NCBI RefSeq assembly: GCF_048077055.1
Contig: NZ_CP182236.1
Coordinates: forward strand, 7,450,594-7,498,593
Direction: 5' to 3'
Length of the DNA stretch: 48,000 nucleotides
DNA from: Egbenema sp. FJBBOT/2019
GTDB lineage: Bacteria; Cyanobacteriota; Cyanobacteriia; Elainellales; Elainellaceae
Positions 585 to 45,885 of the stretch are shown here, in pieces. Within the stretch, counting starts at the first letter, position 1; every line of letters starts with the position of its first letter. The position numbers and the translations under genes are program-made. Under the pieces are notes generated by a model. It ran no database searches. It saw only the letters and a list, made by a program, of their open reading frames with translations, and was not told where the DNA came from.

Positions 585-1889
585 TTATGCACCAGGAACA
601 AATTGGAAGTCTTGCGTCAAGGTGACAGTTGTGTTGTCTGCTACGACTCCAACCAACATATTGGTTGGTTTGTGGAAGATAGCTATATCATTCAGCGAAC
701 CTCTCACACCTGCCGTATCAGCTAACCTCAGTAGATAGTCACTCGCTTGTCCTTGAACGGAAATCTTATCGCCTTGGGCGCGGCTAAAGTCTTCAATGAC
801 GGCGTATCCCTGATTATTTCGGTAGAAATCCTTGAGGTAGAAGGTGTCTGCCCCTGCACCACCGACCATCGTATCGACTCCACCACCCAAGCCGATAAGA
901 TGATCATTGCCATCACCACCCACCATCCGGTCTGACCCGGTGCCACCGATTAGCGTGTCGTTATACTTTCCGCCCAGCAAGGTGTCATTACCTGCCGCTC
1001 CATCCAGGTAGCTACCTGAGGTGGCATAGCCGTTATTCGCTATAAGCGTATTGTCGAAGCGGTTACCTACAGCACCAGTCGTTCCACCATGAAGTTGTAC
1101 TCTTTCAACAAATTGCAGATCATCGGACATTCGATAAGACTCATTCAGAGGTTGCCCGTTCTCAATCAAAAAGACCATGAGCGTATCGGTTCCTTCATTG
1201 GCATATTCAATGATTACTGGTGTGTTGTTGCTATGAATGTGGTAAGTATCATTGCCTGTTCCACCATACAAAGTGGTTCCAGCACCGCCGCTTAGAGTAT
1301 CGTTGCCTTCACCACCGTAGAACGTAGAGCCACTATCACTACCATATAACCAATCATCACCAGCATCTCCATAAATGGTATCTTTACCACCCCCTCCAAC
1401 AATCGTGTCATTTCCGCCGCCGCCCCGGAGTTCGTTGTCCCATCTGTTTCCCTCAATTCTGTTGGCTTGATTATTCCCAATTCCAACAATCCCAACCCCT
1501 TTAGTTGCATCATTCATCAGGGTCAAGTTTTCAACAAAATTAGGTAAAACGTATCGTCGAGCATGGGATTGTACCCAGTCAGTCCCCTCGCCATCGCGCT
1601 CAATGATTTGATCTTGTTCACTATCGACAACATAAGTATCATTTCCTTTGCCGCCAATCATGCGGTCATTACCAGTTCCCCCATCCAGGGAATCATCTCC
1701 ATCTAGTCCTACCAATGTGTCGTTGCCAGAGCCGCCGAGTAAGGTGTCGTTTTTTCCTCCCCCCGTTAGGCTGTCATTTCCAGCACCGCCATCAATGTGC
1801 CAGCTATCCCACCATTTGATGGGCCAAATTCCTGATTGTTCTGCTGTGATTGTGTCGTTGCCAGAGCCGCCACTTCTTCTCGTAACCAT
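585..1889 (-). CDS. RTX (hemolysin-type calcium-binding repeat) protein, paralogue 1
   Basis: 434 aa with many GGxGxDxUx nonapeptides (GGAGNDSLTGGGKNDTLLGGSGNDTLVGLDGDDSLDGGTGNDRMIGGKGND). AAGGAGAAACTTCA precedes the ATG. Paralogue of 25597..26895. Confidence 0.85.
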   Translation of the reverse strand: MVTRRSGGSGNDTITAEQSGIWPIKWWDSWHIDGGAGNDSLTGGGKNDTLLGGSGNDTLVGLDGDDSLDGGTGNDRMIGGKGNDTYVVDSEQDQIIERDGEGTDWVQSHARRYVLPNFVENLTLMNDATKGVGIVGIGNNQANRIEGNRWDNELRGGGGNDTIVGGGGKDTIYGDAGDDWLYGSDSGSTFYGGEGNDTLSGGAGTTLYGGTGNDTYHIHSNNTPVIIEYANEGTDTLMVFLIENGQPLNESYRMSDDLQFVERVQLHGGTTGAVGNRFDNTLIANNGYATSGSYLDGAAGNDTLLGGKYNDTLIGGTGSDRMVGGDGNDHLIGLGGGVDTMVGGAGADTFYLKDFYRNNQGYAVIEDFSRAQGDKISVQGQASDYLLRLADTAGVRGSLNDIAIFHKPTNMLVGVVADNTTVTLTQDFQFVPGA

Positions 1890-2188
1890 TGAAGTTTCTC
1901 CTTTAATTTCTTGTTTGAGTTGGGTGCAGTATTTTTTGTACTTGCGTTAGCGTTGGTGTATGCAGAGAAGTTATAGAAGATTAACCGAGTGCCTCAATCA
2001 GTATCGATTGCCTTCAGTAAGTTCGCTTTACATCCGTAGATTGAGTGTAATGGCGGTTAACTTTATCGGTCTAATACATACTTAATTGAATCAACAGTCG
2101 ATTAGAAAACTCGTTCATCAACTGATTTCGTTTGTTTTCCGCTGATTGGTTGTCTTCCATGTTTATAAGATACAAAGTCTACTCAGGT

Positions 2189-2266
2189 TTGTCTTTACAG
2201 GAAAGTATGGAGTGGAGTATGCAGTGAAATATCAGAAAAGTATGGTGAGATTTACCTAAAGTATGG
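2189..2266 (+). promoter_or_regulatory. Phased AGTATGG-box cassette, copy A (upstream of RTX-1)
   Basis: TGTCTTTACAGGAAAGTATGGAGTGGAGTATGC... with boxes starting at 2204, 2216 (AGTATGC), 2239 and 2260, spacing 12/23/21. The GTTC array to its left is degenerate in this copy. Confidence 0.6.
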
Positions 2267-4420: not shown

Positions 4421-4448
4421 GGAGTGAGGAGTGAGGAGTGAGGAGTGA
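4421..4448. repeat. Heptamer tandem repeat (GGAGTGA)x4, STRR-like
   Basis: Four perfect tandem units, followed by the GGTGGGCA-A-TGCCCACC palindrome at 4458-4474, in the ABC/HlyD intergenic gap. The same heptamer array occurs at 45851-45885. Confidence 0.85.
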
Positions 4449-4486
4449 GAGAAGTAGGGTGGGCAATGCCCACCATTCACCAACCT

Positions 4487-7170: not shown

Positions 7171-7345
7171 CGTTCTCAGAGCGTTCCGAAACCGTTCTGG
7201 GGTCGTTCGGTGATGGCTTGACCTCCACACTTCACACAATACAGAAGCTCTCCAGCCCTGTCTTTACAGGAAAGTATGGAGTGGAGTATGCAGCTCAATT
7301 GTGAGAAAAGTCAGAAAAGTATGGTGGGGATTGGCAAAAGTATGG
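7171..7345 (+). promoter_or_regulatory. Phased-repeat cassette, copy B (upstream of the ABC-HlyD operon)
   Basis: GTTC at 7172/7183/7194/7205 (exactly 11 bp apart). TGTCTTTACAGG, then AGTATGG boxes at 7273, 7285 (AGTATGC), 7318 and 7339, spacing 12/33/21. Confidence 0.65.
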
Positions 7346-8801: not shown

Positions 8802-9563
8802 CTAGGCTACTCGAAGTTGAACCCGTTTGTCGTGCAGTTTTTGAGCAATCCACTGGTCAAAAATCGTATTGCATAACAGTTGTTGGACTTCCTCATTAGC
8901 GAGGGACGCAGGCAAAAACTGTTCTAGACGGAATAAACACCACTTCTGATCGATTTCAATGGGGCCAACAATATCTCCCACCTTTGCCAAATCGATCGCC
9001 ACTCGCAATGCATCCGGCAATTGACCTCGGCTAATGGTTCCCAGCATACCATTGACGACTCGATCGCCTGATATGGAATACTCTCGCACCAGTTGCTCAA
9101 AGCTGGCTGCTTCTTCTATGATCTGAGCTTTCAGTTCTTCAGCCAGTTCCCAGTTTTCTACGACTAAGCGGGATAGCACAACCTGGTCAAGATGGAGTTT
9201 TTGATCGATGAAGGTTTCCTGCAACTTGGGTTCCACGATCGTGGGTAGAAACTGGTTCATCTGGAATTGATGGGTGATATTTTGCTCAAAAGCTGTTCTC
9301 GTCAGACCTTGCTGTGCCAACCACTGCTGATAGTGTTGATCATCCAGAAGCTGATTTTCCTGACGAAAGTTAGTGATGATTTGCTGGATCTGTTCTGCGC
9401 TAACCTTTGCTTGAGGACAGTTTTGTAATTCTTGCTTTAAGACGTGCTGCTGTAAGACTGTGCTAATGAATGAACTGAGTTGACCAGAGGTTTGCAGATA
9501 ATCAATGATCTGTTCGATCGTGATGGGATGATCGTCAATATAGAGAAAGGTTGGGGTGTTCAT
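8802..9563 (-). CDS. Parvulin/SurA-like peptidyl-prolyl isomerase family protein (paralogue 1)
   Basis: 253 aa. The C-terminal block EYSISGDRVVNGMLGTISRGQLPDALRVAIDLAKVGDIVGPIEIDQKWCLFRLEQ fits the PpiC rotamase pattern (S..GG.LG...G.l...f..a...l..G..s.P). Paralogue of 12510..13274. Confidence 0.65.
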   Translation of the reverse strand: MNTPTFLYIDDHPITIEQIIDYLQTSGQLSSFISTVLQQHVLKQELQNCPQAKVSAEQIQQIITNFRQENQLLDDQHYQQWLAQQGLTRTAFEQNITHQFQMNQFLPTIVEPKLQETFIDQKLHLDQVVLSRLVVENWELAEELKAQIIEEAASFEQLVREYSISGDRVVNGMLGTISRGQLPDALRVAIDLAKVGDIVGPIEIDQKWCLFRLEQFLPASLANEEVQQLLCNTIFDQWIAQKLHDKRVQLRVA

Positions 9564-9614
9564 CGTATTTCCGAGTTAGGTTTACTACTGAATCAAACTA
9601 AGTTGGGATCGAAT

Positions 9615-9789
9615 TGTTCTCAAAGTGTTCCGAAACCGTTCTTCAACTCTTCCGATTTTTGTTCAAATTTCATACTCATACTATACAAAAGCTACCCGTG
9701 CTTGTCTTTACAGGAAAGTATGGAGTGCGGTATGCAGCTCAATTGCCAGAAAAGTCAGAAAAGTATGGTGGAGTTTCTCAAAAGTATGG
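9615..9789 (+). promoter_or_regulatory. Phased-repeat cassette, copy C (upstream of parvulin-like gene 1)
   Basis: GTTC at 9616/9627/9638, CTTC at 9649, GTTC at 9661. AGTATGG boxes at 9717, 9729 (GGTATGC), 9762 and 9783, spacing 12/33/21. Confidence 0.65.
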
Positions 9790-11127: not shown

Positions 11128-12386
11128 TTATGCAGCGGAAGCCGGAGTAGGTTGGCTAGCATCTCTTACGGTTAGCTTATAACTGCTGCCCTGTGAGTGC
11201 GAGCCATTGAAGACCTTCACAAAGTAATCTCCAGGTGCCAACGTCTTTTGGAACTCCTTAACATCTGTGCCACTTTGCGTCAGTTCTTTCACCTTTCTGC
11301 CCTGAGAATCCATCAATTTCAGGTTCAGGTTTTGGTTCATCTCAGCCAATGAAAAGCTGACATTGGTTTGTTGATCAAGGGAAAAGGCATAGATATCTTT
11401 GATATCATCTCTAGCAGTTTCACCTTTCGCCGTAATCGCCTTTGCAGACAGGTTTCCTAAGTTATTATTTGCCCGTGCGTCTGCGATCGTATTATTACTT
11501 TCCTGCTCTAAAAAGTATGGATTGGGAGGCTGAGGTGCGCCTGCGGAAGGCTGCCCCACCGAAGGTCTCGGAGGAGTGGGTACGCCTGCAGGCTGGGGAG
11601 CATAACTAATAGGGGCAGGTGGTCGAGGAACGCGATGATCGACAATGCTCGGACCGGCTGGAGTTGGGCTAGCAGGACGATGATCGACAACGATCGGACG
11701 AGCTGGAGTCGGGTTTTGAATTGTAATCGTTGGAAGTTGAACGGTTACGTTTGGCAGACCTGCGGGTTTGGTCACTGCGCCGATTACGCTATTGATTGCA
11801 TTACTGGCTGCATTACTGACTGCATTGGCGGCAGTTGCTACGGGGCGAGCCACGGTGTTGACCACTGTATTAGCTGCGTTTACTGCCGTTGACACCGGAC
11901 GAGTCACCGTGTTTAGAACTGTGTTGGCTGCATTTGTTACTGCTGCCGTGACGGGTCGAGCGACGGTGTTAATCGCAGCATTGGCTACGTTTGCTGCCGT
12001 TGACACCGGACGAGCGACTGTGTTTAGAACTGTACCGGCTGCATTATTAACTGCATTTACGGCAGTTGATACGGGTCGTGTTACTGCACTGGCGACAGCC
12101 GATCCAACCGCAGCAATACTAGACAGGGTCGGTGGTTTAATTGTCACCTGTACACCTGTTGGGGAAGGATTAGAACTAACAGGTGTTTGCGGTCGGTGAT
12201 CGACAACGACTGCGGCCGGGGTGCGATCGCGGTCGAGGCAGTCGAGCTTGGCGCACGGCTAGGAAGCACATTGTTTGCGATCTGCGTTGCTGCACCGATC
12301 GGATTACTTGTGGTTGTAATCGCTGAAGATACAGCAGTTGCGGTCAAGTTACGATTTTGTTGGGTTGTGTTTGCAGTTGCCAACAT
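11128..12386 (-). pseudogene. Third PPC-domain protein with ~18-aa TVARPVSTAxNAxN repeats and a Pro-rich linker; reading frame broken by a 1-nt shift
   Basis: ATG 12386 has AGGAG 10 nt upstream and opens MLATANTTQQNRNL.... That frame stops at 12144. The 339-aa ORF (11128..12147) stays open in the -1 frame back to 12258 (AAVVVDHRPQTP, echoing the internal IVVDHRPASP). C-terminal PPC: DIYAFSL...GDYFVKVF...YKLTV. Confidence 0.6.
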
Positions 12387-12509: not shown

Positions 12510-13274
12510 TCACGAGGCAAGCTGTAATTCAACGTGTCTATCCCGCATCCTTTCAGCCATCCATTCCTCAAAAATTTGAGTTTGCAGTGAAGTTTGAATC
12601 GCTTCATCCGCCAGAGAAGCTGGAATAAACTGTTCAACTCGGTACAGAAACCATTGCTGCTCAAACTCTAAGGGACCAACAATGTCACCGGGTTGAGCCA
12701 CATCGATCATGGCGCGCAGTCCATCCGATAGCTGACCTCGGCTAAGGGCACCCATCATGCCATTGATCAGGCGATCGTCCGATACAGAATACTCTCGCAC
12801 CAGTTGCTCAAAGCTGGCTCCTTCTTCTGTAATTTGTGTTTTGAGTTCCTCTGCCAACTCCTGGCTATCCACTACTAACTGCGACAGCACGACCTGGTCA
12901 AGATAAAGCTTTTGATTGATAAAGGTTTCTTGCAACTTTGGCTCAACAATGGTTGGCACAAACTGTTCTAACCGCAGGCGATGCATAATATCTTGTTTAA
13001 GGGCGATTTCAGTTGTGCCTTCTTGGGCTAACCATTGCTGAAAGCACTGATCGTCTACAAGCTGTTTTTGTTGTCGAAACTCTGCAATCATTCGCTCAAC
13101 TTGTTCTAAGCTAATATGTGCTTCAGGACAGCTTTGTAACGCTTGCTCTAAAATATGCTGGTGCAAAACCGTACTGATAAATGATTCAAGCTGTCCAGAG
13201 GTATGAAGATAGCGAAGGATCTGGTCGATCGGAATCGGTTGACTATCAATATAGAGAAATGCTGGAGTGTTCAT
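12510..13274 (-). CDS. Parvulin/SurA-like peptidyl-prolyl isomerase family protein (paralogue 2)
   Basis: Start chosen at MNTPAFLYID to parallel MNTPTFLYID of paralogue 1; the ORF-track start at 13340 is also possible. C-terminal EYSVSDDRLINGMMGALSRGQLSDGLRAMIDVAQPGDIVGPLEFEQQWFLYRVEQ. Confidence 0.65.
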   Translation of the reverse strand: MNTPAFLYIDSQPIPIDQILRYLHTSGQLESFISTVLHQHILEQALQSCPEAHISLEQVERMIAEFRQQKQLVDDQCFQQWLAQEGTTEIALKQDIMHRLRLEQFVPTIVEPKLQETFINQKLYLDQVVLSQLVVDSQELAEELKTQITEEGASFEQLVREYSVSDDRLINGMMGALSRGQLSDGLRAMIDVAQPGDIVGPLEFEQQWFLYRVEQFIPASLADEAIQTSLQTQIFEEWMAERMRDRHVELQLAS

Positions 13275-13371
13275 TGGGTTATCAGGATAAGTGTGCTGAA
13301 TCGTTTTAAGGTTTTGGATTTGAGCTAGGAAAGTCATCAACTTGATGATGGCTGAAACAACTTTAAGTTAA

Positions 13372-13546
13372 TGTTCCATGCGTTCTCAAATCGTTCCTAA
13401 ACCGTTCTGAAGTTGTTCCGTCGGTGGTTTGTCTCCCACACTTCTTACGATACAGAAGTCATCCAGAGCTGTCTTTACAGGAAAGTATGGAGTGGAGTAT
13501 GCAACGCAATATCAGAAAAGTAAGGTGCGATCGGCTTAAAGTATGG
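13372..13546 (+). promoter_or_regulatory. Phased-repeat cassette, copy D (divergent region between parvulin-like gene 2 and STAND gene 1)
   Basis: GTTC at 13373/13382/13393/13404/13415 (spacing 9/11/11/11). AGTATGG boxes at 13484, 13496 (AGTATGC), 13519 (AGTAAGG) and 13540, spacing 12/23/21. Confidence 0.65.
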
Positions 13547-13707
13547 AATGGGGTAAAGAGGCACTAATGCTTCAGGAATCCGTCCCTTTGCTGTGTAGTG
13601 GTTTAGAGCCTGCCATACCATAGAAAAAGTGTGGGTTTTGCCTGAACCCCAGAAAAATAGGGTATAAATTTCTGAGAAGCATATATATTCCTCTATATTT
13701 CAGTCCT

Positions 13708-16700
13708 ATGCACCCTGCCTCAGCGATCGAAATTGAGTTTGATCAAGTAATTCCCATCGTGAACAATATCCTGCAAGGGAAATGCGATCGCCCCCTCAGT
13801 GATCTGGAGGTTGAACTATTGAGGGGAGCCTGGGATAATTTGACCTATGATGAAATCGCTGCTCGATCGGGCTATTCGCTGAACTATCTCCAGCGGGATA
13901 TGGGTCCAAAGTTTTGGAAGCTCCTGGGTCGTAGCGTGGGGCAAAAACTTAGCAAAGCGAACGCCAGAGTTATTTTGACTCAGATTGCACAATCCCAGCT
14001 ACAACCCCCAGAGCCTCCGCCTCCCCTGCCAGATGCCACCCCTCCAGAGACGCAAGCAAAACTCCTCACAGTTCAGACCGCCCGCCCCGATCCGCCGCCT
14101 CTCCCCTCGCCTCCCGCCATTCCCTCCACCTGCGACTGGGGCGAAGCGATCGATACGTCTATCTTTTATGGTCGAGAAACTGAGTTACAGACCTTGCATC
14201 AATGGATCATTGATGACCATTGTCGAATGATTGCGGTACTGGGCATAGGAGGTATCGGGAAAAGTTCCCTGGCCGCCAAAATCGCTACCATCCTGCAAGA
14301 TCAGTTTGAGTTCATCATCTGGCGATCGCTGCGGAACGCCCCACCGTTGGAAACCTTGCTCAGGGAGCTTGTCCCCTTTGTTTCCCGTCAGCAAGATACC
14401 CAAGCCCAACCCGATCGACTGCTGCACTGGCTGCGTACCCATCGCTGTCTGGTAATTCTCGATAACCTGGAAACCGTTATGCAGGTTGGCGATCGGGCCG
14501 GATACTATCAATCTGATTATGAGAACTATGGCGAATTGCTGCGAATCGTTGGAGAAACCACCCATCAAAGTTGCGTCTTGCTGACTAGCCGCGAAAAGCC
14601 ATCGGAAATTGCTGTGCTGGAAGGCCCAGATACCTGGGTGCGATCGCTGACCTTAGGCGGTTCTCCAGAAGCCTCGCTGGCTCTAATTGAGTCAAAAGGT
14701 TTATCCGGAGAAGCAGCAGAAAAACTACAACTTTGTGAGTCCTATAGTTATAATCCACTCGCTCTGAAGATTGTCGCGTCTTTCATTGACAGTCTGTTTG
14801 ATGGAGAAATTGCTACATTTCGGCAAGAAAACACCTTGCTGGTCAATGGTCTGCGGCGTTTGCTGGAACAACAGTTTGAGCGATTATCCTACCTGGAACA
14901 AACGATCATGTACTGGTTGGCGATCAACCGTGAATGGATCACGATCGCTGAACTGATGGAAGATATAGTTCCAACACCTTCTAGAGTTAACTTGCTAGAG
15001 ACATTGGAATCACTAACGTGGCGATCGTTGGTGGAAAAGCGAGCGGGTGCATATACTCAGCAACCCGTTGTCATGGAATATATTTTGGAATGCTTGATTG
15101 AGCGAATTGCAACCGAGTTAATCACAAACAAGCTTTCCCTGTTTCACCGCTACGCGCTCGTTAAAACATCTGTTCTGGAATATATTCGTGATAGTCAAAT
15201 TCGCTTAATTTTACAACCGATCGCCAATCGATTGCAGTCTACCTTGCCTGCTCGATCAGCAATAGAACAGCATCTCAGAACAGTCCTACAGCAACTACGG
15301 GCTACGACCCATCCAACTTCACGCTACGGTGTGGGCAATTTACTAAACCTGCTGATTCATTACCAAGTTGATTTGGCTGACTATGATCTGTCTCATCAAC
15401 AGATTTGGCATGCTCAGTTGGAGAAAACGACCCTCCAACGCACCAATTTTTCCTATGCTGAATTGCACCAAACAACCTTTATCCAACCCCTGAGCTATAT
15501 TCTGGAACTGGCCTTCAGTCCGGATGGTCAATTGCTGAGTACCGTTGATAGTACAGGACACATTTATCTGTGGCGGGTTCAGGATGGGCAACCGATCGTC
15601 AATCGTTTGGGACATGCCAGCCGGATTCATTCAGTTTGCTTTAGTCCGGATGGTGCGATCCTTGCTACAGGCAGTGCCGATCGTACCGTTAGACTCTGGG
15701 ATGTCAAAACAGGCACAATGCTGAAGCAACTTCATGGGCACACAAATGAAGTTCGATCTGTCGCCATTAGCCCCAACGGGCAATTCTTAGCGAGTGCCAG
15801 TGCCGACACCACCATTCAAATCTGGGATTTGGCGAGTGGGACATTGCAAAAAACGCTCACTGGGCATGAAGATGAGCTTTGGTCATTAGCATTTAGTCCC
15901 AATGGGCAATACCTGGCGAGCAGTGGGGCGAGACCAAACATCCGGATCTGGGATGGGGTAACGGGAACTCTGGTGCGGACGCTGGCAGGAGATGCGCCGA
16001 TTCATTGGTCGGTGTCCTTTAGTCCCGATGGACAAATCCTGGCGACGGGCAGTAACGATCACATGGTGCGCTTGTGGCAGGTGGCAACGGGGCAGCTTTT
16101 ACGAACCTTAGACGGCCATACGAGCCATGTCATTACAACTTGCTTTAGTCCGGATAGATTGTACCTGGCAAGTGGTAGCCTGGATTGTTCGATTCGGATC
16201 TGGGATGTCCGAACCGGTGCGCTGCTCAAAACGTTTCAGGGACATACCAATGGGATCTGGTCGATCGCTTTTAACCCAGACGGTTCCCTGCTGGCCAGTG
16301 GTGGGCAAGATTACTGTGTGAAATTGTGGGATATCAAGCTGGGGCAGACTCGTAAAACGCTGCGAGGTTACAGCAATAGTGTGCGATCGGTTCGTTTCAG
16401 TCCAGATGGGCAGACGATCGCAGCGGCTGGGTATGATCCTAAGATCAGAATTTGGGATGTCGCCCTTGAGCAAATCACTCAGTCCTTTTACCCGGAACCA
16501 GGCGGAGTCTTTTCAGTGGAATTCAGCCCAGATGATACCCTGTTGGCCAGCGGTGGCTCTGCTAACACCATCAGCCTTTGGAATTTAAAGACTGGGCAAC
16601 TGTTACGAAGATTAGTGGGACATCAAGGCTGGATTTGGTTATTGTCCTTTAGCCCCGATGGACACTACATTGCCAGCGGTAGCACAGACAGCACCCTGAA

Positions 16701-17394
16701 ATTATGGCAAGTGCAAAATGGTCAACTGGTACACACTCTGGAAGGTCACGATGGGTGGATTTGGTCGCTAGCCTTCAGCCCCGATGGCACACTATTAGCC
16801 AGTGGTGGATTGGATAGCACGATCCGGATCTGGGAGGTGAAGACGGGAGAACCGATCGCCGTTTATCGCGGGCATGAGGGTTGGGTAACGACCCTATCCT
16901 TTGTGAAAAATAGCTGCATCCTGGCCAGTGGGGGCAGTGATGGGTTGATTAAACTTTGGGATCTGCAAACTCCTGCATCGCCCACCTTGCAATCCTCCTG
17001 GCAGGCGCATCAAAGTACGGTGTGGTCGCTGGCTAGCTTTTCAGATCAAAAACGGATCGTCAGCGGCAGCGCGGACGGAACCATCAAACTTTGGGCAATC
17101 GAAACCCAAACCTTACAAATGACATTGGCAGAACATACCAATGAAGTATGGACAATTGCTCTCAGTTCAGACGAGACCTGCCTAGTCAGCGGTAGTGTTG
17201 ATGAACAGGTGAAATTATGGGATATCGAAACAGGAAAGTGTTTGAAAACCTTAACAGGCGATCGTCCTTACGAAGGGATGAATATTACAGGCGTAACGGG
17301 CATTACTGATGCGCAAAAAGTGACGCTCAAGGCTTTGGGCGCGATCATTCAAGATTCAGAGGATTTAAGCCTTGTTAATGTTGGTTTGCCTTAG
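13708..17394 (+). CDS. STAND protein 1: N-terminal LuxR/sigma-r4-like HTH, NB-ARC-type P-loop NTPase, pentapeptide-like segment, ~14 WD40 repeats
   Basis: 1228 aa. HTH-like [44 protein letters not shown], Walker [14 protein letters not shown], Walker [15 protein letters not shown] GxPLAL-like YNPLALKIV, then repeated GH..x..SVAFSPDG..LASGS.D.T(I/V)(K/R)(L/I)WD units. Tail [28 protein letters not shown]. Confidence 0.85.
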
Positions 17395-17533
17395 CCGCTC
17401 CAGCATCTGTTTTTTCACTTTTCTACTCTATATGGTTGAGCCGCCCTTGCTTGAGAAAAGTGTGGAATTCGGCTGAAAGACGATGAAATGGGTTATATAT
17501 TTCTGATAAACACGTAGCGCTTCCTGGTTCCCT

Positions 17534-20500
17534 ATGCACCCTGCCTCAGCGATCGAAATTGAATTTGATCAAGTGATTCCGATTGTGAACAATATCCTGC
17601 AAACGGAATGCGATCGCCCCCTCAGTGATCTGGAGGTGGAACTATTGAGGGGAGCCTGGGAGAACCTGACCTACGATGAAATTGCTGCTCGATCGGGCTA
17701 TTCGCTGAACTATCTCCAGCGGGACATGGGGCCAAAGTTCTGGAAGCTTTTAAGTAGCAGTTTGAAGCGCAAGATTAACAAAACCAATGCCAGAGCTATC
17801 CTGACCCAGTTGGTTCAATTCCAGCTTCAGTCCCAGCCTTCCCAATCCCAACCTAAATCCTTAGAGCCACTCCCCCTTGCGGCTTCAGCCACTGCTCCAC
17901 CCCAGCAATCAGCGGCTGCGATTCTCACCGCCCACTCTCCCCTGCTCGCGCCTCCGCCTCCCCCTCCCTGCCCTAACCCCTCTACCCTCGACTGGGGTGA
18001 AGCGATCGATGCATCTATCTTCTACGGTCGAGAAACGGAACTGAACACCCTCAAGCAGTGGATGATCGATGATCGCTGTCGCATGGTTGCCTTACTGGGG
18101 ATGGGGGGCATTGGTAAAAGTTCCCTGGCGGCTAAAATTGCCACCATGCTGCAAGATCAGTTTGAGTTCATCATCTGGCGATCGCTCCGCAATGCACCTC
18201 CCCTGGAAACCTTACTCAGTGATCTGGTTCCGTTTGTCTCGCGGCAGCAGGACACTCAAACTAAACCCGATCGACTGCTGCACTGGCTGCGTACCCACCG
18301 CTGTCTGGTGATTCTCGATAACCTGGAAACGATTATGCAGGCAGGCGATCGGGCAGGGTACTACCAGCCTGACTATGAGAACTATGGTGAATTGCTACGA
18401 GTGCTGGGAGAGTCTGCCCATCAAAGTTGTGTACTGTTGACCAGTCGTGAAAAACCTGCGGAAGTAGCCTTTATGGAGGAAACCGATGGCTGGGTGCGAT
18501 CTGAAACGCTCAGTGGTTCCCTGGAGGCGGCCCTGGCCATCCTGAACGTCAAACAGTTAGTTGGAAGCGATCAAGAGAAACGACAGCTCTGTGAATTTTA
18601 TGGTTGCAGTCCCCTCGCCTTAAAAGTAGTTGCCTCCTCCATTCACAGTTTATTCGATGGCAGTATTTCTGAATTTTTGCAGGAAGAAACCCTGATTTTC
18701 AATGGTATTCGTCGCCTGTTAGAGCAGCAGTTTGAGCGATTGTCCCATTTAGAAAAGAGCATTATGTACTGGCTGGCGATTAACCGTGAATGGGTATCGT
18801 TCGCTGAATTATACCAGGATATTACTCCGGCTGTGTCTCGATCGAGTTTGTTAGAAGCTTTAGAATCTCTAACCTGGCGTAGCTTGATTGAAAAACAATC
18901 AGGGCAGTACACGCAGCAACCTGCGGTCATGGAATATGTGACTGAACAACTGGTGCATCAAGTCGTGATTGAGCTAGTGGCTCAAAAACTGGCTTTGTTC
19001 GATCGGTACGCGCTGATCAAAACTACCGTCAGTGCCTATGTTCGAGCGGCCCAATTCCGGCTAATTCTACAGAAAATTGGCGATCGATTACGATTTGCCT
19101 TTGCCAGCCCTGAAGCCCTCCAACAGCATATCCAAGTTTTACTGCAACAGCTTCGTGCCAATTCCGATATTGCTTCTAACTATAGTGGCGGTAATTTATT
19201 GAACCTGTGCATTTACTTAAACCTGGATATCACGGATTACGACTTCTCTGAACTCACGATTCGCCATGCCTATTTGCAAAATACATCGCTGCATCGGGTT
19301 AACTTTGCCGAGGCTGAATTTGATCAACCCGCTTTTACCCAGACCTTCAGCAGTGTTTTAGCGGTAGCCTTCAGTCCTGATGGAACACTGTTAGCCACGT
19401 CTGATACGAATACAGAAGTGCGGCTCTGGCGATTGTCTGATATGCAGTTACTACATCAATTGCAGGGGCATGGAGATTGGGTTCGTGCCCTGGACTTTGC
19501 TCCCACCGGACGTTACCTGGCCAGCGGCAGTGATGAGTCCAGTATTCGGATCTGGGATGTCCAGACGGGGGATTGCCTGCAAGTTTTAACCGAACATAGT
19601 GGCCATGTTTGCGCCCTGGACTTTAGCCCCGATGGCCAGACCTTGGTCAGCAGCAGTGATGATGGCACCTTGAAAGTATGGCAGGTTACAAGCGGAAAAT
19701 GCTTACAAACCCTAGCGGGTCACAGCCAGCGCATCTGGTCTGTGGCGTTTCATCCCGACGGAACCCATCTGGTCAGCGGCAGCCAGGATCAGACTGTGAA
19801 ACTTTGGGATTTAACAACTCAGCAATGCATCAATACCCTGCACGGTCACACCGGATGGATTACTGCCGTTGCTTTTAGTCCAGAGGGCCGTTATGTAGCC
19901 AGCGGCAGCCATGACACGACGGTAAAACTCTGGGATGCTGTCACCGGAGATTGCCTGACTACGCTGTATGGGCATCAAAATTGGGTCTGGTCTGTAGCTT
20001 TTAGTCCTGAAGGGACTTTGCTCGCCAGTGCAGGGGAAGATCAAACGGTGCGGTTGTGGAATATCAAAACAGGACGGTGCCTCAAAATTTTGGAGGGACA
20101 TACCCATCGCATCTGGTCGGTGGCTTTTAGTCCGGTGAAACCCATGCTAGCCAGTGGCAGTGATGATCAGACGGTGCGGCTATGGGAAATTGGGATGCTT
20201 CAGAATTTTGGTTCACCCAGAGAGTCTGGAGCAGAATTGTTAGCCCTTTCTGGACACTGTACTAAAGTGCTGCAAGGACACACTCACCAGATCTGGTCGA
20301 TCGCCTTTAGCCCTGATGGTAGAACGATCGCCGGAAGTGGGGATGAACAGGTGATTCGATTATGGCAGGTGGATACGGGCAGATGCTACAACATATTGAC
20401 AGGACATACGCATCGAGTTAGCTCTGTCGCCTTTAGTTCCGACGGTTGCACGATCGCCAGTGGTGGAGAAGATCAAATGGTTTGCCTATGGAATGCGGGC

Positions 20501-21277
20501 ACGGGGCAATTGCTACGGAAATTGCGGGGGCATTCAAACCAGGTTTGGTGCGTTGTATTTAATCCGGTAGCTCCGATATTGGCCAGCTCCAGTGAAGATC
20601 AGACCATCAAACTATGGGATGTGAAAACGGGAAAATGTTTGAAAACGCTGTATGGGCATCATGACTGGATCTGGTTCCTTGCTTTTAGTCCCAATGGTCA
20701 AATTCTGGCTAGCAGTAGCTATGATCAAACAGTTAAGCTCTGGGATGTGCAGACCGGGGAATGTTTGAAAACGCTGGAAGGTCATTCCGGTTCAGTCATG
20801 TGTGTTGTGTTCAGCCCCGATGGACGATTTCTTGCCAGTTGTAGTTGCTACGATCAGGAAATTCGACTGTGGGAGGTTGCTACAGGACAGTGTTTGCAGG
20901 TGATACGGGCATCCGCTCCCATGTCTCTGGTACTTCTGCCCAATGCATCGTCTCAAACTGGACTAAGTTTGGTGAGTGGCAGTGGTCAATTGGAAACTGG
21001 CATTCAGTTCTGGGATTTGGATGATGGCGAATGCTACAAAACCTTGCAAGGACACGATCGCTGGATTATGGAAATTCAACTGAGTCCCAGTGGCGAAGTT
21101 TTGGCCAGTGGCAGCGGCGATGAAACGATTCGATTATGGGATGTGAAATCAGGGCAGTGCTTACGCATTCTCAGACCCAATCGTCCCTATGAAGGCATAA
21201 ATATCACTGGAGTCAGGGGATTAACGCAGGCACAAAAAGAAGCCCTGAAGGACTTAGGCGCGATCGAGCAGGCATGA
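17534..21277 (+). CDS. STAND protein 2: HTH + NB-ARC-type NTPase + ~14 WD40 repeats (tandem paralogue)
   Basis: 1247 aa. The first 23 aa are identical to protein 1. [31 protein letters not shown], a divergent WD40 array with two blade insertions, and tail NRPYEGINITGVRGLTQAQKEALKDLGA. Confidence 0.85.
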   Translation: MHPASAIEIEFDQVIPIVNNILQTECDRPLSDLEVELLRGAWENLTYDEIAARSGYSLNYLQRDMGPKFWKLLSSSLKRKINKTNARAILTQLVQFQLQSQPSQSQPKSLEPLPLAASATAPPQQSAAAILTAHSPLLAPPPPPPCPNPSTLDWGEAIDASIFYGRETELNTLKQWMIDDRCRMVALLGMGGIGKSSLAAKIATMLQDQFEFIIWRSLRNAPPLETLLSDLVPFVSRQQDTQTKPDRLLHWLRTHRCLVILDNLETIMQAGDRAGYYQPDYENYGELLRVLGESAHQSCVLLTSREKPAEVAFMEETDGWVRSETLSGSLEAALAILNVKQLVGSDQEKRQLCEFYGCSPLALKVVASSIHSLFDGSISEFLQEETLIFNGIRRLLEQQFERLSHLEKSIMYWLAINREWVSFAELYQDITPAVSRSSLLEALESLTWRSLIEKQSGQYTQQPAVMEYVTEQLVHQVVIELVAQKLALFDRYALIKTTVSAYVRAAQFRLILQKIGDRLRFAFASPEALQQHIQVLLQQLRANSDIASNYSGGNLLNLCIYLNLDITDYDFSELTIRHAYLQNTSLHRVNFAEAEFDQPAFTQTFSSVLAVAFSPDGTLLATSDTNTEVRLWRLSDMQLLHQLQGHGDWVRALDFAPTGRYLASGSDESSIRIWDVQTGDCLQVLTEHSGHVCALDFSPDGQTLVSSSDDGTLKVWQVTSGKCLQTLAGHSQRIWSVAFHPDGTHLVSGSQDQTVKLWDLTTQQCINTLHGHTGWITAVAFSPEGRYVASGSHDTTVKLWDAVTGDCLTTLYGHQNWVWSVAFSPEGTLLASAGEDQTVRLWNIKTGRCLKILEGHTHRIWSVAFSPVKPMLASGSDDQTVRLWEIGMLQNFGSPRESGAELLALSGHCTKVLQGHTHQIWSIAFSPDGRTIAGSGDEQVIRLWQVDTGRCYNILTGHTHRVSSVAFSSDGCTIASGGEDQMVCLWNAGTGQLLRKLRGHSNQVWCVVFNPVAPILASSSEDQTIKLWDVKTGKCLKTLYGHHDWIWFLAFSPNGQILASSSYDQTVKLWDVQTGECLKTLEGHSGSVMCVVFSPDGRFLASCSCYDQEIRLWEVATGQCLQVIRASAPMSLVLLPNASSQTGLSLVSGSGQLETGIQFWDLDDGECYKTLQGHDRWIMEIQLSPSGEVLASGSGDETIRLWDVKSGQCLRILRPNRPYEGINITGVRGLTQAQKEALKDLGAIEQA

Positions 21278-23297: not shown

Positions 23298-23399
23298 GTC
23301 AGTTACTCCTGATTTGACATCAATGTGAATCTGATGTATCAATTCTCTTGTGTATCTTGTTTGATCGCTACCCGCAATCATTTTCCCTTGCTGATAGCG

Positions 23400-23507
23400 C
23401 TAGTAGACCTCGGCAGCAATACGCCCACCTTTCGTAGTGCAGGCTTCCAGCCTGCGCGGGCAAGATGCCCGCTCTACGGTTGCTCAATTCACGCTCGCTT
23501 CTACTAG
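23400..23507. repeat. 108-bp MITE-like element, copy 1 (TIR CTAGTAGA...TCTACTAG)
   Basis: By eye it differs at 3 positions from the reverse complement of 32080..32187. It has an internal GCGGGCAAGATGCCCGC hairpin. The terminal CTAG supplies the stop codon of the GNAT gene. Confidence 0.8.
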
Positions 23508-23643: not shown

Positions 23644-24862
23644 GTAGATTGTCAGCCTTGATTTGAAGGGTAAATGGATTGATAATTTGAGCTATCTCCA
23701 ATCAGTCAAACCATTATGGCGCGAAAAAAATACATCGTTTCTCTAACTGCTGAAGAACGAAAAGAGTTGGAGCAACTCACTACAACTGGCAAAGTTGCTG
23801 CTTACAAAATGAACCATGCACGGATTTTGCTCAAAGCCGACACCAACCAAGAAGATGGAGGATGGACGGATCAAGCAATTAGCCAAGCACTCGACATCAG
23901 TGTAGCGACGATTGAACGGGTGCGGCAACGCTTTGTTGAAACAGGTCTAGAGAGTGCCTTGAGTCGGCAAGTGCAGCAACAACGCAAACCGCGCCGCCTC
24001 GATGGATCCCAAGAAGCACATCTGATTGCGATGACCTGTAGTGAGCCTCCCGAAGGACAAGCCCGTTGGAGTCTGCGCTTGTTAGCTGAGCGAATGGTGG
24101 AATTAGAGGTGGTCGAAAGCATCTGCCATGAAACCGTTCGACAAACGCTGAAAAAAACGACCTCAAGCCCTGGTTGAAAGAATGCTGGGTGATTCCTCCC
24201 GAGTCCAATGCGACGTTTGTCTACTACATGGAAGATATCTTAAGTGTCTACACCCGCTCTTACGACTCACGCTATCCCGTAGTTTGTTTTGACGAAACCA
24301 GCAAACAGTTAGTCAAGGAAACCCAAGTCCCTTTACCGATTGAACCGGGTCAACCGCCGCGCTATGACTACGAGTATGAACGAAACGGGGTCAACAATCT
24401 GTTCATGTTCGTTGAGCCCTTAGCGGGTTGGAGACATGTCCAAGTCACAGACCGGCGCACCAAGCACGATTATGCCCAGCAAATGAAATACTTGGTCGAC
24501 GAGCGTTATCCGGATGCGGAGTGGGTCACGGTTGTCCAAGACCAACTCAACACTCATGACCCTTCGGCATTGTATGCCACCTTTGAACCCCAAGAAGCCA
24601 AGCGGATCCTCGATAAGTTGGAATTTCATTACACCCCGGTTCACGGCAGTTGGCTCAATATGGCTGAAACTGAACTCAGTGTTTTAGCCCGCCAATGTCT
24701 AGATCGCCGCATTCCAGATCAACCGTCATTGCAACAAGAAACACTAGCGTGGGAGCAGCGCAGGAATGCTCAACTGCGAACCATCGATTGGCAATTTACC
24801 ACGGAAGATGCACGGGTTAAACTCAAACGACTTTACCCTTCATTTCAACCTTGACAGACCAC
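23644..24862 (+). mobile_element. IS630/Tc1-mariner-family insertion sequence (~1.2 kb) with TA target duplication
   Basis: Imperfect TIRs GTAGATTGTCAGCCTTGATTTGAAGGG (left) and GTGGTCTGTCAAGGTTGAAATGAAGGG (right, reverse complement). Flanking TA at 23642-23643 and 24863-24864. Confidence 0.85.
23716..24854 (+). CDS. IS630-family DDE transposase, two ORFs joined by a probable -1 frameshift on A7
   Basis: ORF1 is the HTH part and ORF2 the DDE part (FDETS, VVQDQLNTH, SWLNMAETE). A -1 slip on AAAAAAA at 24151-24157 yields LKKNDLKPWLKECWVIPP, the typical IS630 junction sequence. Confidence 0.8.
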
Positions 24863-25596: not shown

Positions 25597-26895
25597 TTAA
25601 CCAGGAACGAACTGGAAATCCGTTGAGAGACTCACGTTAGTTGTGTCTTGCACCACTCCAACGAGCGCGTTTGTGGGCTTGTAATAAATTCCTACGTCAG
25701 AAATTCCCACAGGCCCGACCATCTCCACTAGGGCTAACCGATAGTCGCTCGCTTGTCCTTGCAGGGAAATCTTATCGCCTTCGGAACGTTTGAAATCCCT
25801 GATGGTCGCAAAATGATTATCTCGGTAGAAGTCTTTAAGGTAGAAGATATCCGCTCCTGCCCCACCTTCCATGATGTCGAAGCCGCCACCAACACCAATG
25901 ATGTGGTCATCGCCGCCGCCGCCGCGCATCTGGTCGTTGCCAGCCCCTCCAAGTAGGGTGTCGTTGAATCCGTTACCAACCAGAACATCACGACCACCTC
26001 CTCCATCTAAGTAGCTTGCCCTGCTTGGATTTGCCACGATCAAGTTACCGAAACCGTTGCCTACGGCTCCCTTCGCTAAACCCATTAACTCAACTCTTTC
26101 AATATGTTCCAGGTTGCTGGGCATGTTATAGACCTCATCTGTAGGTAGCCCAGATACAAGCTCAAAAATCAGTTTGTCGCTCCCTTCATTGGCTTTTTCA
26201 ACAATGGTTGGGCCGTTGTTGCTGTAAACGTAGTACGTATCATCGCCGATTCCGCCATACAGCTTATCGCCTGCGCCACCGTGTAGGGAGTCACTTCCAC
26301 TGTCACCGTAAAGGCTAGACCCCGTTCCGCCTGTGATGCCACGAATCGTACCCAACAACACGTCGTCATTATCTCCGCCATAGACGTTATTTTTTCCGCC
26401 TGTATGTGCGTAGATTGTATCGTTCCCACCTAAACCGTAGAGGTCATTATCCCATTGGTTGCCCTTGATTGTGTTGCTAAGGTTATTCCCAATACCGACG
26501 CGACCTACCCCTTTCACGGCATCGTCCATCAGTTCCATCCTTTCAACAAAAGCAGGTAGAACATATCTTTGAGCGTGAGAGAAAACTGTATCGTTTCCTT
26601 CTCCATCTCGTTCGGTGATTCGATCGCGCTCATTGTCTACGAAATAGCTATCATCACCGCGTCCCCCGACCATGAGATCTTCACCTGTACCGCCATCCAT
26701 GCGATCATTACCGTCTAGACCGACCAAGGTATCATTACCAATTCCTCCAGTCAGCGTATCGCTTTTGGCTCCACCTGTCAGGCTGTCGTTGCCTTCCCTT
26801 CCGTCAATTTCCCAGCTTTCCCACCAGAGTCCCCATCCAGATTTGGTTGCGGTAATGGTATCGTTGCCGGTGGTTCCGGTTCTTCTTTCAGTCAT
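25597..26895 (-). CDS. RTX (hemolysin-type calcium-binding repeat) protein, paralogue 2
   Basis: 432 aa, colinear with 585..1889: MTERRTGTTGNDTITA..., GGxGxD nonapeptides, and a conserved tail DKISLQGQASDYRL...YYKPTNALVGVV...TDFQFVPG. It has the same AAGGAGAAACTTCA ATG initiation region. Confidence 0.85.
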   Translation of the reverse strand: MTERRTGTTGNDTITATKSGWGLWWESWEIDGREGNDSLTGGAKSDTLTGGIGNDTLVGLDGNDRMDGGTGEDLMVGGRGDDSYFVDNERDRITERDGEGNDTVFSHAQRYVLPAFVERMELMDDAVKGVGRVGIGNNLSNTIKGNQWDNDLYGLGGNDTIYAHTGGKNNVYGGDNDDVLLGTIRGITGGTGSSLYGDSGSDSLHGGAGDKLYGGIGDDTYYVYSNNGPTIVEKANEGSDKLIFELVSGLPTDEVYNMPSNLEHIERVELMGLAKGAVGNGFGNLIVANPSRASYLDGGGGRDVLVGNGFNDTLLGGAGNDQMRGGGGDDHIIGVGGGFDIMEGGAGADIFYLKDFYRDNHFATIRDFKRSEGDKISLQGQASDYRLALVEMVGPVGISDVGIYYKPTNALVGVVQDTTNVSLSTDFQFVPG

Positions 26896-26993: not shown

Positions 26994-27250
26994 TGTCCTT
27001 TTACAGTTCTCGCCTCTATTCCAATAGCAGATTAGAGTTGCACACTACTCAGGATTTCGGACAAAACAGCATATAATGCAGAGTCAGGCAGATACCTGAG
27101 GATGGAAGATGCTTTTCTGTCCTGCGTGGTGCCAGTCATCTCTATGTCTTCCAAGATAAGGGGATGTTTTGTAGTTGTCGTTACAGAAAATGTCCACTCT
27201 TCAATGGTTTAAAAGGTCCACTTTTGTCCGGTCTACCTCATTAACTGTCC
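26994..27250. promoter_or_regulatory. TGTCC-box array in the divergent RTX-2 / STAND-3 intergenic region
   Basis: TGTCC at 26994, 27118, 27191, 27225 and 27246; GGTCC at 27215; GGACA (reverse complement) at 27059. The four proximal boxes lie 40-100 nt upstream of the STAND-3 ATG. Confidence 0.45.
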
Positions 27251-30954: not shown

Positions 30955-31899
30955 CTAAGACCAGCCTTTGGCTAACTCAATCACTTTGGCTTTACCGCTC
31001 GGACTGATTTCACCCAGCACCCGAATGAAGTTGGAATGGGTTAAACCCGAACAGAGGAACGTCCAACGGTAGGCTTGTTGCTGTACCTCTAAAATTTCCT
31101 GGCGTTCTGAGTCGGTGAAGCGGCGATCGACCGCCCGTTCCAAATTCACCAGATCAAGGTTGACCTGTTCCATCAGCGCATCGTGCAAGAGATGCACCAG
31201 TTTCAGGTAATCCTCGATCGCCAGTTCTACAACGTCCGTTCCCAACCGTGCTGCTAAGTCATACGCCAATAGGGTATCCAGCTTGGTATGTTGGGCTTCC
31301 TCTAACCAGTGACATCGCAGTAAATCACAGAAGCAGAGATCAAGATCCTCTTCATCATTATTGCGGACACTTTCCAGGTAGTGGCTTTGCGTCGTCCATT
31401 CAAACTGCAAGGTTAATAGCAATACGCTAAGGGGATGATGCTCCAGAATTTTGGCGGCCATTGCAGCGGTGGACTCCATGCGATCGCAGGGATAACCAAA
31501 TCCGGCTTCAAAAGCAGTCGCAAACTCCTGAAACAGGTGAATATGTTTGCCCTCTTCCTCGGCAAAGCCCAATAAAGCTTGCGTTGCAAAAATGTCATCA
31601 AATCCTAGCCGCTTCACCTGCTCCAACACCATTGGAATGATAAACTGCTCTACCAGGACAAACAGATGCAGATAGCTACAGCCCCGGATATGGTTAAGGG
31701 TCAACTGTTCCGATGGATTGAGACACTCAATGTCCTCTGTTCGTACCAGCGATTCCGGTAGAAACGGTTTTGTAAAATCTAAGCACCGGGTGGGATTAAT
31801 TAAGTCATGCACTTGCCAATTCACCTTTTGGGCATCCTGCCAAACTTTTTGATAAGGATGTACCTGAGCGGTGGTTTTCGATTGCCATACCCCAGTCAT
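30955..31899 (-). CDS. Ferritin-like diiron-carboxylate oxygenase (AurF-like N-oxygenase family candidate)
   Basis: 314 aa, helical, with two ExxH motifs (FAEEEGKHIHLF and HWLEEAQHTKLD) plus upstream single Glu residues (LVEQF, LQFEW). This gives the E / ExxH / E / ExxH diiron ligand pattern. Confidence 0.55.
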   Translation of the reverse strand: MTGVWQSKTTAQVHPYQKVWQDAQKVNWQVHDLINPTRCLDFTKPFLPESLVRTEDIECLNPSEQLTLNHIRGCSYLHLFVLVEQFIIPMVLEQVKRLGFDDIFATQALLGFAEEEGKHIHLFQEFATAFEAGFGYPCDRMESTAAMAAKILEHHPLSVLLLTLQFEWTTQSHYLESVRNNDEEDLDLCFCDLLRCHWLEEAQHTKLDTLLAYDLAARLGTDVVELAIEDYLKLVHLLHDALMEQVNLDLVNLERAVDRRFTDSERQEILEVQQQAYRWTFLCSGLTHSNFIRVLGEISPSGKAKVIELAKGWS

Positions 31900-31977
31900 T
31901 GCACTAACCCGCCTTCAGCTGAAGAAAAAATCTTTCTACTAGCCTACGCTCTCTAACCTGGCTTGTGGGGATTAAAA

Positions 31978-32006
31978 AGTATGGAATTTGGGTGAAAAAA
32001 GTATGG
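31978..32006 (+). promoter_or_regulatory. Mini AGTATGG-box pair upstream of the diiron oxygenase-like gene
   Basis: AAAAAGTATGG at 31978 and AAAAAGTATGG at 32000, 22 bp apart, same strand as the other cassettes, 80-107 nt upstream of the minus-strand ATG at 31899. Confidence 0.5.
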
Positions 32007-45849: not shown

Positions 45850-45850
45850 A

Positions 45851-45885
45851 GGAGTGAGGAGTGAGGAGTGAGGAGTGAGGAGTGG
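45851..45885. repeat. Heptamer tandem repeat (GGAGTGA)x4-5
   Basis: GGAGTGA x4 plus GGAGTGG immediately after the hemL stop. Same unit as 4421..4448. Confidence 0.85.

Follow-up and report, generated by a model that had tools for sequence, protein, structure and literature searches.

A conserved direct-repeat cassette upstream of cyanobacterial HTH-STAND genes, and its putative promoter-proximal copies in Egbenema

Filamentous cyanobacteria have many large proteins that join a helix-turn-helix (HTH) domain to NB-ARC and WD40 modules, and the role of these proteins is obscure. A 48,000-nt stretch of the genome of Egbenema sp. FJBBOT/2019 (contig NZ_CP182236.1, positions 7,450,594 to 7,498,593; hereafter the window, within which all coordinates are counted) raises the question of whether such proteins are transcription factors that read short boxes upstream of their own genes. 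Three proteins of this architecture, STAND-1, STAND-2 and STAND-3, are encoded there, and the first two are preceded by the same octamer, AAGTGTGG. The original prediction held that this octamer is a relative of the AAGTATGG boxes of a cassette repeated in the window and that it stands at a fixed distance from a TATAAT-like element; it suggested that the STAND genes and the secretion genes around them form one regulon, with the STAND HTH domains as a speculative binding factor. Its reading of the letters was accurate: 28 nt separate the octamer from TATAAAT (13663-13669) upstream of STAND-1 and from TATATAT (17494-17500) upstream of STAND-2, the flanks GA(A/G)AAAGTGTGG and TTTCTGA(G/T)AA occur at both promoters, and cassette D, whose boxes start at 13483 and 13539, shares its intergenic region with the STAND-1 octamer. 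The weight of the evidence has since moved, away from the AAGTGTGG box, which is weak, and towards cassette D and the equivalent cassettes of other genomes, which are strong. The elements concerned are these:

13708-17394, plus strand: STAND-1, 1228 aa; HTH at residues 1-100 (13708-14007), NB-ARC/NACHT NTPase, WD40 repeats
17534-21277, plus strand: STAND-2, 1247 aa; tandem paralog of STAND-1
27290-30895: STAND-3, the third paralog
13436-13546, plus strand: cassette D
13436-13443: inverted G-variant box of cassette D, CCACACTT
13474-13480: TTTACA/TTACAG scaffold of cassette D
13483-13490: box 1 of cassette D, AAGTATGG
13496-13501: half-box of cassette D, AGTATG
13518-13525: degenerate box 2 of cassette D, AAGTAAGG
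13539-13546: box 3 of cassette D, AAGTATGG
13627-13634, plus strand: proximal box of STAND-1, AAGTGTGG, extended to GAAAAAGTGTGG from 13623
13642-13670, plus strand: candidate sigma-70-type core promoter of STAND-1, CTGAAC (13642-13647), 17 nt, TAAATT (13665-13670)
17458-17465, plus strand: proximal box of STAND-2, AAGTGTGG, extended to AGAAAAGTGTGG
17473-17501, plus strand: candidate core promoter of STAND-2, CTGAAA, 17 nt, TATATT

The link between the STAND genes and the cassette motif proved to extend far beyond Egbenema. Representative genomes searched with the first 560 residues of STAND-1 gave 43 loci, and in loci from several genera the cassette core, as tgtctTTACAGaaAAGTATGGagtt.aAGTATGtaAAGTATGGtttgat, was found on the same strand and 50-130 nt upstream of the homologous STAND gene: in Calothrix (L002, L016), Goleter (L003), Nostoc (L005, L009), Trichormus (L006), Aliinostoc (L013) and Microcoleus (L015), in two metagenome-assembled genomes of Leptolyngbyaceae (L004, L007), and in a further cyanobacterial metagenome-assembled genome (L008). 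Protein look-ups added contig PVWD01000031 of CCP2, the closest relative (L044), and two Logan contigs (L045, L068), all of them with the cassette; overall, its distance from the STAND gene falls within 50-250 nt. Its general form is GTCTTTACAG, AAAGTATGG, AGTATG, and then one or two further AAAGTATGG about two helical turns apart, and the architecture of cassette D is that seen upstream of the STAND homologs of L004, L007, L044, L045, L047 and L065. An unbiased scan of metagenome contigs with the pattern TTACAGRAAAGTATG-N8-38-AAGTATGG returned 21 loci, among which were seven independent cyanobacterial cassettes, each with a MEFEQ...NYLQRD open reading frame (ORF) 75-175 nt downstream; the remaining loci were chance matches in unrelated coding sequence. 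When 15 cassettes were aligned, the invariant columns were TT(A/G)CAG-AAAGTATG and the GTATG half-box, and the spacers were variable and carried insertions and deletions. The cassette is thus a conserved feature preceding the HTH-STAND homologs of many cyanobacterial genera and, by this comparison, belongs ancestrally to the upstream region of one cyanobacterial HTH(VMAP-M9)/NB-ARC/WD40 STAND clade. That a motif is found upstream of sensor genes in so many genera suggests that the proteins are transcription factors regulating themselves, and the comparative data support the connection of motif, STAND gene and autoregulation well. No description of the cis-element was found in the literature for either the motif or the architecture.

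Some Nostocales have a second cassette at a distance of 0.4-1.2 kb on the upstream side of the STAND gene (L002, 5484-5670; L005, 4730; L009, 5237), where it precedes a truncated remnant of HTH-coding sequence, for example a 73-aa ORF, MEFEQALAIANHAFNN..., followed by a stop. These second cassettes look like relics of a tandem duplication of cassette and gene.

If the cassette is read by the protein encoded behind it, its boxes would be expected to change with the HTH domain, and such a pattern was found. In an alignment of 26 N-termini, to which L068 was added afterwards, every locus with AGTATG boxes upstream has the helix SGYS[ILV]NYLQRD[IVM]GPKFW (STNYLQRD in L068), and eleven loci with other helices (e.g., YSISYIRRH, YSESYVRRD, YSISYLTRD, SSYLTR) have no AGTATG boxes. 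Two other HTH clades retain the GTCnTTACAG scaffold with different repeats, of a GTCCAC type in one and a GTCTGG/AGTCAG type in the other. STAND-3 and its CCP2 ortholog have ATGTCCAC, AGGTCCAC and TTGTCCGG (window 27177-27231), and the Nostoc/Aulosira loci L012, L014 and L018 have TTGTCTGGAA twice and AAAAGTCAG twice, kept in three species whose spacers differ. Residues 59, 62 and 64, which are among the first of the predicted recognition helix (58-77), vary between the clades. The co-variation of box and helix rests on three clades, and widening the set of STAND-3 homologs gave one unrelated clade and one further member of clade 1. Clade-specific boxes are the pattern to be expected if each HTH domain reads the boxes upstream of its own gene, and we infer on this basis that the HTH is the box-binding factor. 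The variant cassette of STAND-3, GTCGTTACAGAAAATGTCCAC...AGGTCCACTTTTGTCCGG at 27177-27231, is divergent from an RTX gene (25597-26895); it has the scaffold of the AAGTATGG cassette and the same RTX/STAND layout, and is near-identical in CCP2 (L001).

The N-terminal domain had been called an HTH in the original prediction, and this was borne out by its homologs and by its modelled fold. Precomputed assignments place Pfam PF26355 (HTH_VMAP-M9) on the homologs P0001 (74% identical to STAND-1), P0002, P0003, P0004 and P0005; the local Pfam scan did not report PF26355 for the window proteins themselves. An AlphaFold single-sequence model of the domain, with a mean predicted local distance difference test score of 86.8, has helices 47-54 and 58-77 as a helix-turn-helix, and its top Foldseek matches in the PDB were EL222, DosR, FixJ, SdiA, GerE, NarL bound to DNA, and sigma-E region 4, which suggests a LuxR/GerE-like fold. 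A search of PDB sequences with the HTH profile gave designed repeat proteins only and no meaningful match. The remainder of each protein is that of a STAND NTPase, with NB-ARC at E = 3e-9 to 1e-11, NACHT and nSTAND1 matches, and then 12-13 WD40 repeats.

How, then, do the two proximal AAGTGTGG boxes relate to the cassette? Counted alone they are not significant, since four copies occur in the window where 1.7 would be expected, a number attained in 8 of 100 shuffles; all four fall in cassette or STAND upstream regions. The degenerate motif AAGTRTGG occurs 21 times against 3.2 expected, a count reached by none of 100 shuffles, and 13 of the 15 exact AAAGTATGG 9-mers are in non-coding DNA, which makes up 16% of the window. 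With a position weight matrix trained on 37 boxes, all from other genomes, approximately 96,000 window positions were scored. The first ten ranks went to the boxes of the window cassettes and of a further site, E (described below), with a coding-region box at 11513-11520 in rank 8, and the proximal boxes of STAND-2 and STAND-1 came 11th (16.5 bits) and 19th (10.9 bits). For a single upstream region of 150 nt, the chance of a site this good is roughly P = 0.02-0.03, with the two boxes taken as one event. In its extended form the STAND-2 site, AGAAAAGTGTGG, matches 11 of 12 positions of the box-2 consensus of the cassettes, AGAAAAGTATGG. As had been claimed, therefore, AAGTGTGG is a member of the cassette motif family, one mismatch from AAGTATGG, and the two boxes are probably weak promoter-proximal copies of the STAND-upstream motif. 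The coding-region box, TAAAAAGTATGGATTG, lies inside a 339-aa minus-strand ORF, in codons for PNPYFL, and is probably a chance or coding-driven match.

Both proximal boxes end 7 nt before a weak -35-like CTGAA(C/A), which is followed after 17 nt by TA(A/T)ATT. The STAND-2 candidate came from a consensus scan (one found against 0.3 expected in shuffles); the TAAATT of STAND-1 overlaps TATAAAT and was assigned from its homology with STAND-2. With a transcription start about 7 nt past the hexamer, the centre of the box would fall near -46, where an activator could act; both the sign of regulation and the transcription starts are inferred from sequence. The G-variant of the box, a putative binding site, recurs in inverted form as CCACACTT: it precedes box 1 by about 40 nt in the window's cassettes B and D and in L004, L007 and L044, and is found more loosely as CTCACATTT in L047 and L065. 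Within the cassette itself a promoter could be read with TTTACA as its -35 and TATGnA, 18-19 nt downstream, as its -10; however, TATGnA does not end in the conserved T, and 18-19 nt is a long spacing. Readings of the proximal box as a site for CRP (TGTGA-N6-TCACA), NtcA (GTA-N8-TAC) or HLR1/RpaB, judged by eye, yielded half-site likeness only and were rejected. Directly 5' of its proximal box (window 13597-13622), STAND-1 carries about 17 nt, AGCCTGCCATACCATAG, that are inserted in comparison with CCP2; CCATAC within it (13613-13618) is the inverse of the box core and forms an imperfect inverted repeat, CCATAC-N10-GTGTGG, which is absent from STAND-2.

The whole reading, in which the AAGTGTGG boxes are one-mismatch AAGTATGG operators for autoregulation by the STAND HTH, is in our estimate evenly balanced, and a number of observations weigh against it. 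The first concern the two promoters themselves. At four-fold degenerate sites STAND-1 and STAND-2 are 78% identical over codons 1-100 (82% over codons 1-50) and 32-47% in the remainder, so that the high-identity tract coincides with the 100 HTH-coding codons (13708-14007 vs 17534-17833); upstream, an ungapped block (13616-13684 vs 17447-17515) is identical at 45 of 69 positions. These figures point to a recent duplication of the 5' ends and promoters, or their homogenisation by gene conversion. A common box and spacing would then be shared because tandem paralogs inherited them, and, since the promoters are paralogous, their agreement is no independent evidence and says nothing on function: the two boxes are one evolutionary event, and an identical 10-nt run is fairly often expected at 65-78% identity. 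The fixed distance that had been claimed is thus a mere consequence of paralogy, and it is not kept in CCP2. Where CCP2 and the window are syntenic, their DNA is approximately 92-95% identical, as against only 73-77% in the STAND 5' end and promoter, and the CCP2 proximal box, AAGTGTGA, has a second mismatch and lies 40 nt, not 30 nt, from the aligned -10-like hexamer (TAAACT, against TAAATT in STAND-1 and TATATT in STAND-2). The extra distance comes from a 10-nt tandem duplication (CTAAATCCCC twice), which changes the distance and keeps the helical phase. The next closest homologs, L008 and L045, lack a proximal box, and in homologs more distant still none stands apart from the cassette; by our reading, in Nostocales and L004 the last AAGTATGG lies about 11-13 nt before a -10-like hexamer (TATACT, CATACT or TAAATC) and overlaps the -35 position. 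In addition, position 5 is A in 37 of 37 foreign boxes and G in AAGTGTGG, a change that may abolish binding. On the protein side, a Pfam scan of residues 1-150 at E <= 0.1 gave no hit, and so neither GerE nor Sigma70_r4; the Foldseek matches (TM score on the target about 0.6, 2.6-3.2 Å) have weak E-values of 0.3-2; L019, the sole exception to the correspondence of helix and box, has a SENYLQRD helix and no cassette; and a correlation of clade and box could arise without any cis-trans pairing if gene and promoter were inherited together. As a functional site at a fixed distance, then, AAGTGTGG is only suggestive.

Paralogy could account for the proximal boxes entirely: AAGTGTGG would be a chance near-match kept by the recent duplication or homogenisation of the 5' ends and the 100-140 nt upstream, STAND-1 would be controlled by cassette D alone, and STAND-2 would be constitutive or read through from STAND-1. 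With 5' ends and upstream regions so alike a common 10-mer and spacing are unremarkable, and the unexceptional count of AAGTGTGG, the altered box and distance in CCP2, its lack in L008 and L045, and the invariant A at position 5 all fit. Against this stand the matrix ranks of both boxes, the 11 of 12 positions that AGAAAAGTGTGG shares with cassette box 2, the recurrence of the G-variant as a conserved inverted site in cassettes of several genomes, and the finding that, in promoters otherwise about 65% identical, the run containing the box, AAAAGTGTG, is the longest invariant one in the three-way alignment of STAND-1, STAND-2 and CCP2; we regard this explanation as less likely than not, though far from negligible. 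An alternative with a rather small probability is that the boxes are bound by some other factor in trans, a distinct transcription factor or else an alternative sigma factor for AGTATG-type elements, with the STAND genes as targets and not regulators. The 22-nt separation of the Nostocales box pair is near a -35/-10 spacing, a TTACAG scaffold common to three clades speaks for some common factor, and L019 has the NYLQRD helix and no cassette. However, the box type shifts with the HTH clade while the scaffold stays constant, the unbiased scan finds the cassette only beside this HTH clade, and no other regulator gene is conserved beside it across the loci. Finally, the cassette might act as RNA (a 5' leader, or a small or antisense RNA) or be a small mobile repeat, given that four copies occur in one window and that cassettes A-C point at the 3' ends of minus-strand genes, where antisense transcripts are conceivable. 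We consider this very improbable: RNAalifold found 0 consensus pairs in the 15 cassettes, an Rfam search at gathering and E-value thresholds gave no match, and the STAND-1 leader, folded as a single sequence, is not unusually stable (z = -1.5), all of which marks the cassette as a DNA-level cis-element. In other genomes it occupies a fixed place and orientation upstream of a single gene family; it lacks terminal repeats and target duplications, and conservation is confined to the short boxes amid variable spacers.

Whether the regulon reaches beyond the STAND genes is a separate matter, and it turns on the other cassettes of the window:

2166-2266, plus strand: cassette A; boxes at 2203, 2238 and 2259; upstream of the RTX gene 585-1889 (minus strand)
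7225-7345, plus strand: cassette B; inverted G-box at 7225-7232; boxes at 7272, 7317 and 7338; upstream of the C39-ABC/HlyD operon (minus strand)
9676-9789, plus strand: cassette C; boxes at 9716, 9761 and 9782; upstream of the peptidyl-prolyl isomerase (PPIase) gene 8802-9563 (minus strand)
31977-32006, plus strand: site E; two perfect AAAAAGTATGG/AAGTATGG boxes 22 nt apart, matrix ranks 6 and 10
13381-13407, minus strand: left module of the divergent region of cassette D; three GAACG repeats (CGTTC on the plus strand) at 11-nt spacing, facing the PPIase gene

Cassettes A-D are homologous, with the core TGTCTTTACAGGAAAGTATGGAGTGGAGTATGCAG, 10 or 20 nt, AGAAAAGTATGGTG, a spacer and AAAGTATGG. 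To the left of each lies a minus-strand gene: for A an RTX gene, for B a C39-peptidase/cyclic-nucleotide-binding (cNMP) ABC exporter gene and then HlyD, for C and D PPIase paralogs, and for site E an AurF-like gene. Site E is without the TTACAG scaffold and lies 78-100 nt upstream of this AurF-like di-iron oxygenase gene (30955-31899, minus strand); its 22-nt box spacing equals that of the Nostocales boxes, and site and gene are possibly an extra member of the regulon. The perfect boxes amid diverged spacers suggest that cassettes A-C are maintained for the cargo genes. Searches by tblastn found no N-terminal STAND remnants downstream of cassettes A-C, and so these are not relics of lost STAND genes, unlike the extra cassettes of L002, L005 and L009. 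An RTX gene divergent from the cassette-STAND pair is present also in L004, L007 and L044, and nearby genes encode PPC proteins in L007 and L067 and SnoaL and S-methyltransferase proteins in L045. In CCP2 the order is RTX, cassette, STAND; the RTX gene is orthologous (81%) to that at window 585-1889, and the cassette matches cassette A best (85%). Relative to CCP2 the window has an extra 11-kb secretion block (about 2.3-13.4 kb) between cassettes A and D, which as direct repeats would allow gain or loss of the block by recombination between them. The block contains SnoaL, HlyD, C39-ABC, PPC and PPIase genes and cassettes B and C, and is followed by D and STAND-1/2.

Two findings count against a role for the cassettes at cargo genes. 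The boxes of cassettes A-C and of site E point away from the only plausible target genes, and in the metagenome scan outside the window every bona fide cassette precedes a STAND gene and none a cargo gene. The proposal of one regulon for cargo and STAND genes thus stood in part: the STAND genes are linked to the motif, and the divergent RTX gene recurs elsewhere, but cassettes at cargo genes are seen only in this window, where a regulon including them is plausible from their arrangement.

The GAACG repeats of the minus strand may form another operator, independent of the first and laid out much as response-regulator sites are. Four copies at exactly 11-nt spacing lie beside cassette B (7171-7208) and weaker ones at about 9620-9650, in each case with the AAGTATGG cassette on one side and the leftward cargo gene on the other; CCP2 has a comparable block (L044, about 9540-9570), about 190 nt upstream of the RTX gene and apart from the cassette. 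The PPIase ORF to the left of cassette D (12510-13340, with a TTG start at 13340) more likely starts at ATG 13274 (MNTPAFLYID...), in alignment with the start of its paralog at 9563, which makes the divergent intergenic region approximately 433 nt long.

The most likely mechanism joining these parts is drawn by analogy from two groups of known regulators. MalT and the other large ATP-binding LuxR-type (LAL) regulators are STAND-class transcription activators in which the HTH is C-terminal and the sensor is of SUPR/TPR type, and which, with ATP and inducer, bind specifically to direct-repeat boxes ahead of their target promoters; Danot 2009 and Leipe 2004 are reportedly the sources on them. The window proteins resemble these in combining a STAND NTPase with a repeat sensor and, by predicted fold, a LuxR/GerE-like HTH, and in having short asymmetric direct-repeat boxes directly upstream of candidate promoters with a weak -35, and by analogy an oligomerisation driven by signal and ATP would give cooperative binding. 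They differ in that the HTH is N-terminal, the sensor is WD40, the NTPase matches NB-ARC/NACHT models, the boxes are unrelated in sequence, and the putative targets are the own gene plus secreted proteins and an exporter; by their predicted domains STAND-1 and STAND-2 are analogues of MalT/LAL proteins and not members. The second group is AfsR and the large SARPs of Streptomyces, with an N-terminal DNA-binding domain (an OmpR-type winged helix and BTAD), NB-ARC and a repeat sensor, whose target repeats are heptamers at 11-nt spacing, the last copy abutting or overlapping the -35 region. Here the likeness lies in the order of the domains, in the direct repeats, and in the last box of the Nostocales cassette, about 13 nt from a -10-like hexamer; the predicted fold, in contrast, is LuxR/GerE-like, the boxes are 8-9-mers at about 21-22 nt, and the Pfam scan of the STAND proteins gave no hits to Trans_reg_C or BTAD, which sets them apart from AfsR/SARP.

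On these models, a signal would be sensed by the WD40 repeats, upon which the NB-ARC module would oligomerise and gather several N-terminal LuxR/GerE-like HTH domains; these would occupy the direct repeats cooperatively beside a weak promoter and thereby control transcription of their own gene. In this genome the control would extend to divergent or neighbouring genes for secreted proteins and an exporter through cassettes A-D and site E.

Other comparisons place the family among proteins more often discussed in terms of conflict. The homologs share with HTH_VMAP-M9 proteins and the NTP-dependent conflict systems of multicellular bacteria (Kaur et al. 2020, PMC7159879) the PF26355 N-terminus and a STAND-plus-repeat architecture typical of filamentous cyanobacteria, and HTH domains in STAND conflict systems are discussed there as possible effector modules; neither in that paper nor in our literature searches did a cis-element or autoregulation come up for this family. 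No vWA or MoxR genes were found among the scanned window ORFs or the listed neighbours at homolog loci, and the locus is thus not a VMAP ternary system. PADLOC models of anti-phage systems (Avs and others) gave no significant hit, the only match being to the P-loop of IetA at E = 3e-4. Proteins in which sigma-70 domains are fused to NB-ARC and WD40 appear, as domain architectures only, in a survey of sigma-like proteins of cyanobacteria (PMC11119718); the fusion is of the same kind, and sigma region 4 is among our Foldseek hits, but the STAND proteins here have no Sigma70_r4 Pfam hit. With these comparisons in mind we offer, as a tentative view that falls somewhat short of an even chance, that one widespread family of 'apoptosis-like' HTH/NB-ARC/WD40 STAND proteins consists of signal-activated, MalT-like transcription factors and not of death or defence effectors, that each paralog clade has its own direct-repeat operator on a GTCnTTACAG scaffold and so forms an insulated autoregulatory circuit, and that one such circuit has here been expanded to a secretion module (the C39-ABC/HlyD exporter with RTX, PPC and PPIase proteins). 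If this is true, the principle of MalT and AfsR, a STAND oligomerisation switch with a DNA-binding domain, would extend to a new architecture and a new phylum. A cassette that depends on the HTH clade would be the first concrete handle on these proteins, predicting a DNA target, base-contacting residues (N59, Q62, D64) and candidate target genes.

Several further features of the window lie apart from these questions. An IS630-like element (23716-24854), with an HTH_32 ORF and a DDE_3 ORF in overlapping frames, is situated between amino-acid metabolism genes and a GNAT gene, and the synteny alignment with CCP2 breaks at its position. A 109-nt repeat, 77% identical between its two copies, occurs at 23399-23507 and, far away, at 46524-46632, both intergenic. 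Runs of the heptamer GGAGTGA are present at 4421-4462, at the 5' end of the HlyD ORF, and at 45837-45906, at the 3' end of an aminotransferase ORF. The minus-strand ORF 32534-34264 encodes a 576-aa repeat protein that begins with a signal-like segment and matches no Pfam family, in which about 24 tandem 39-nt units (33216-34145) specify a 13-aa repeat rich in Gly, Asp and His (GGDDSGH...).

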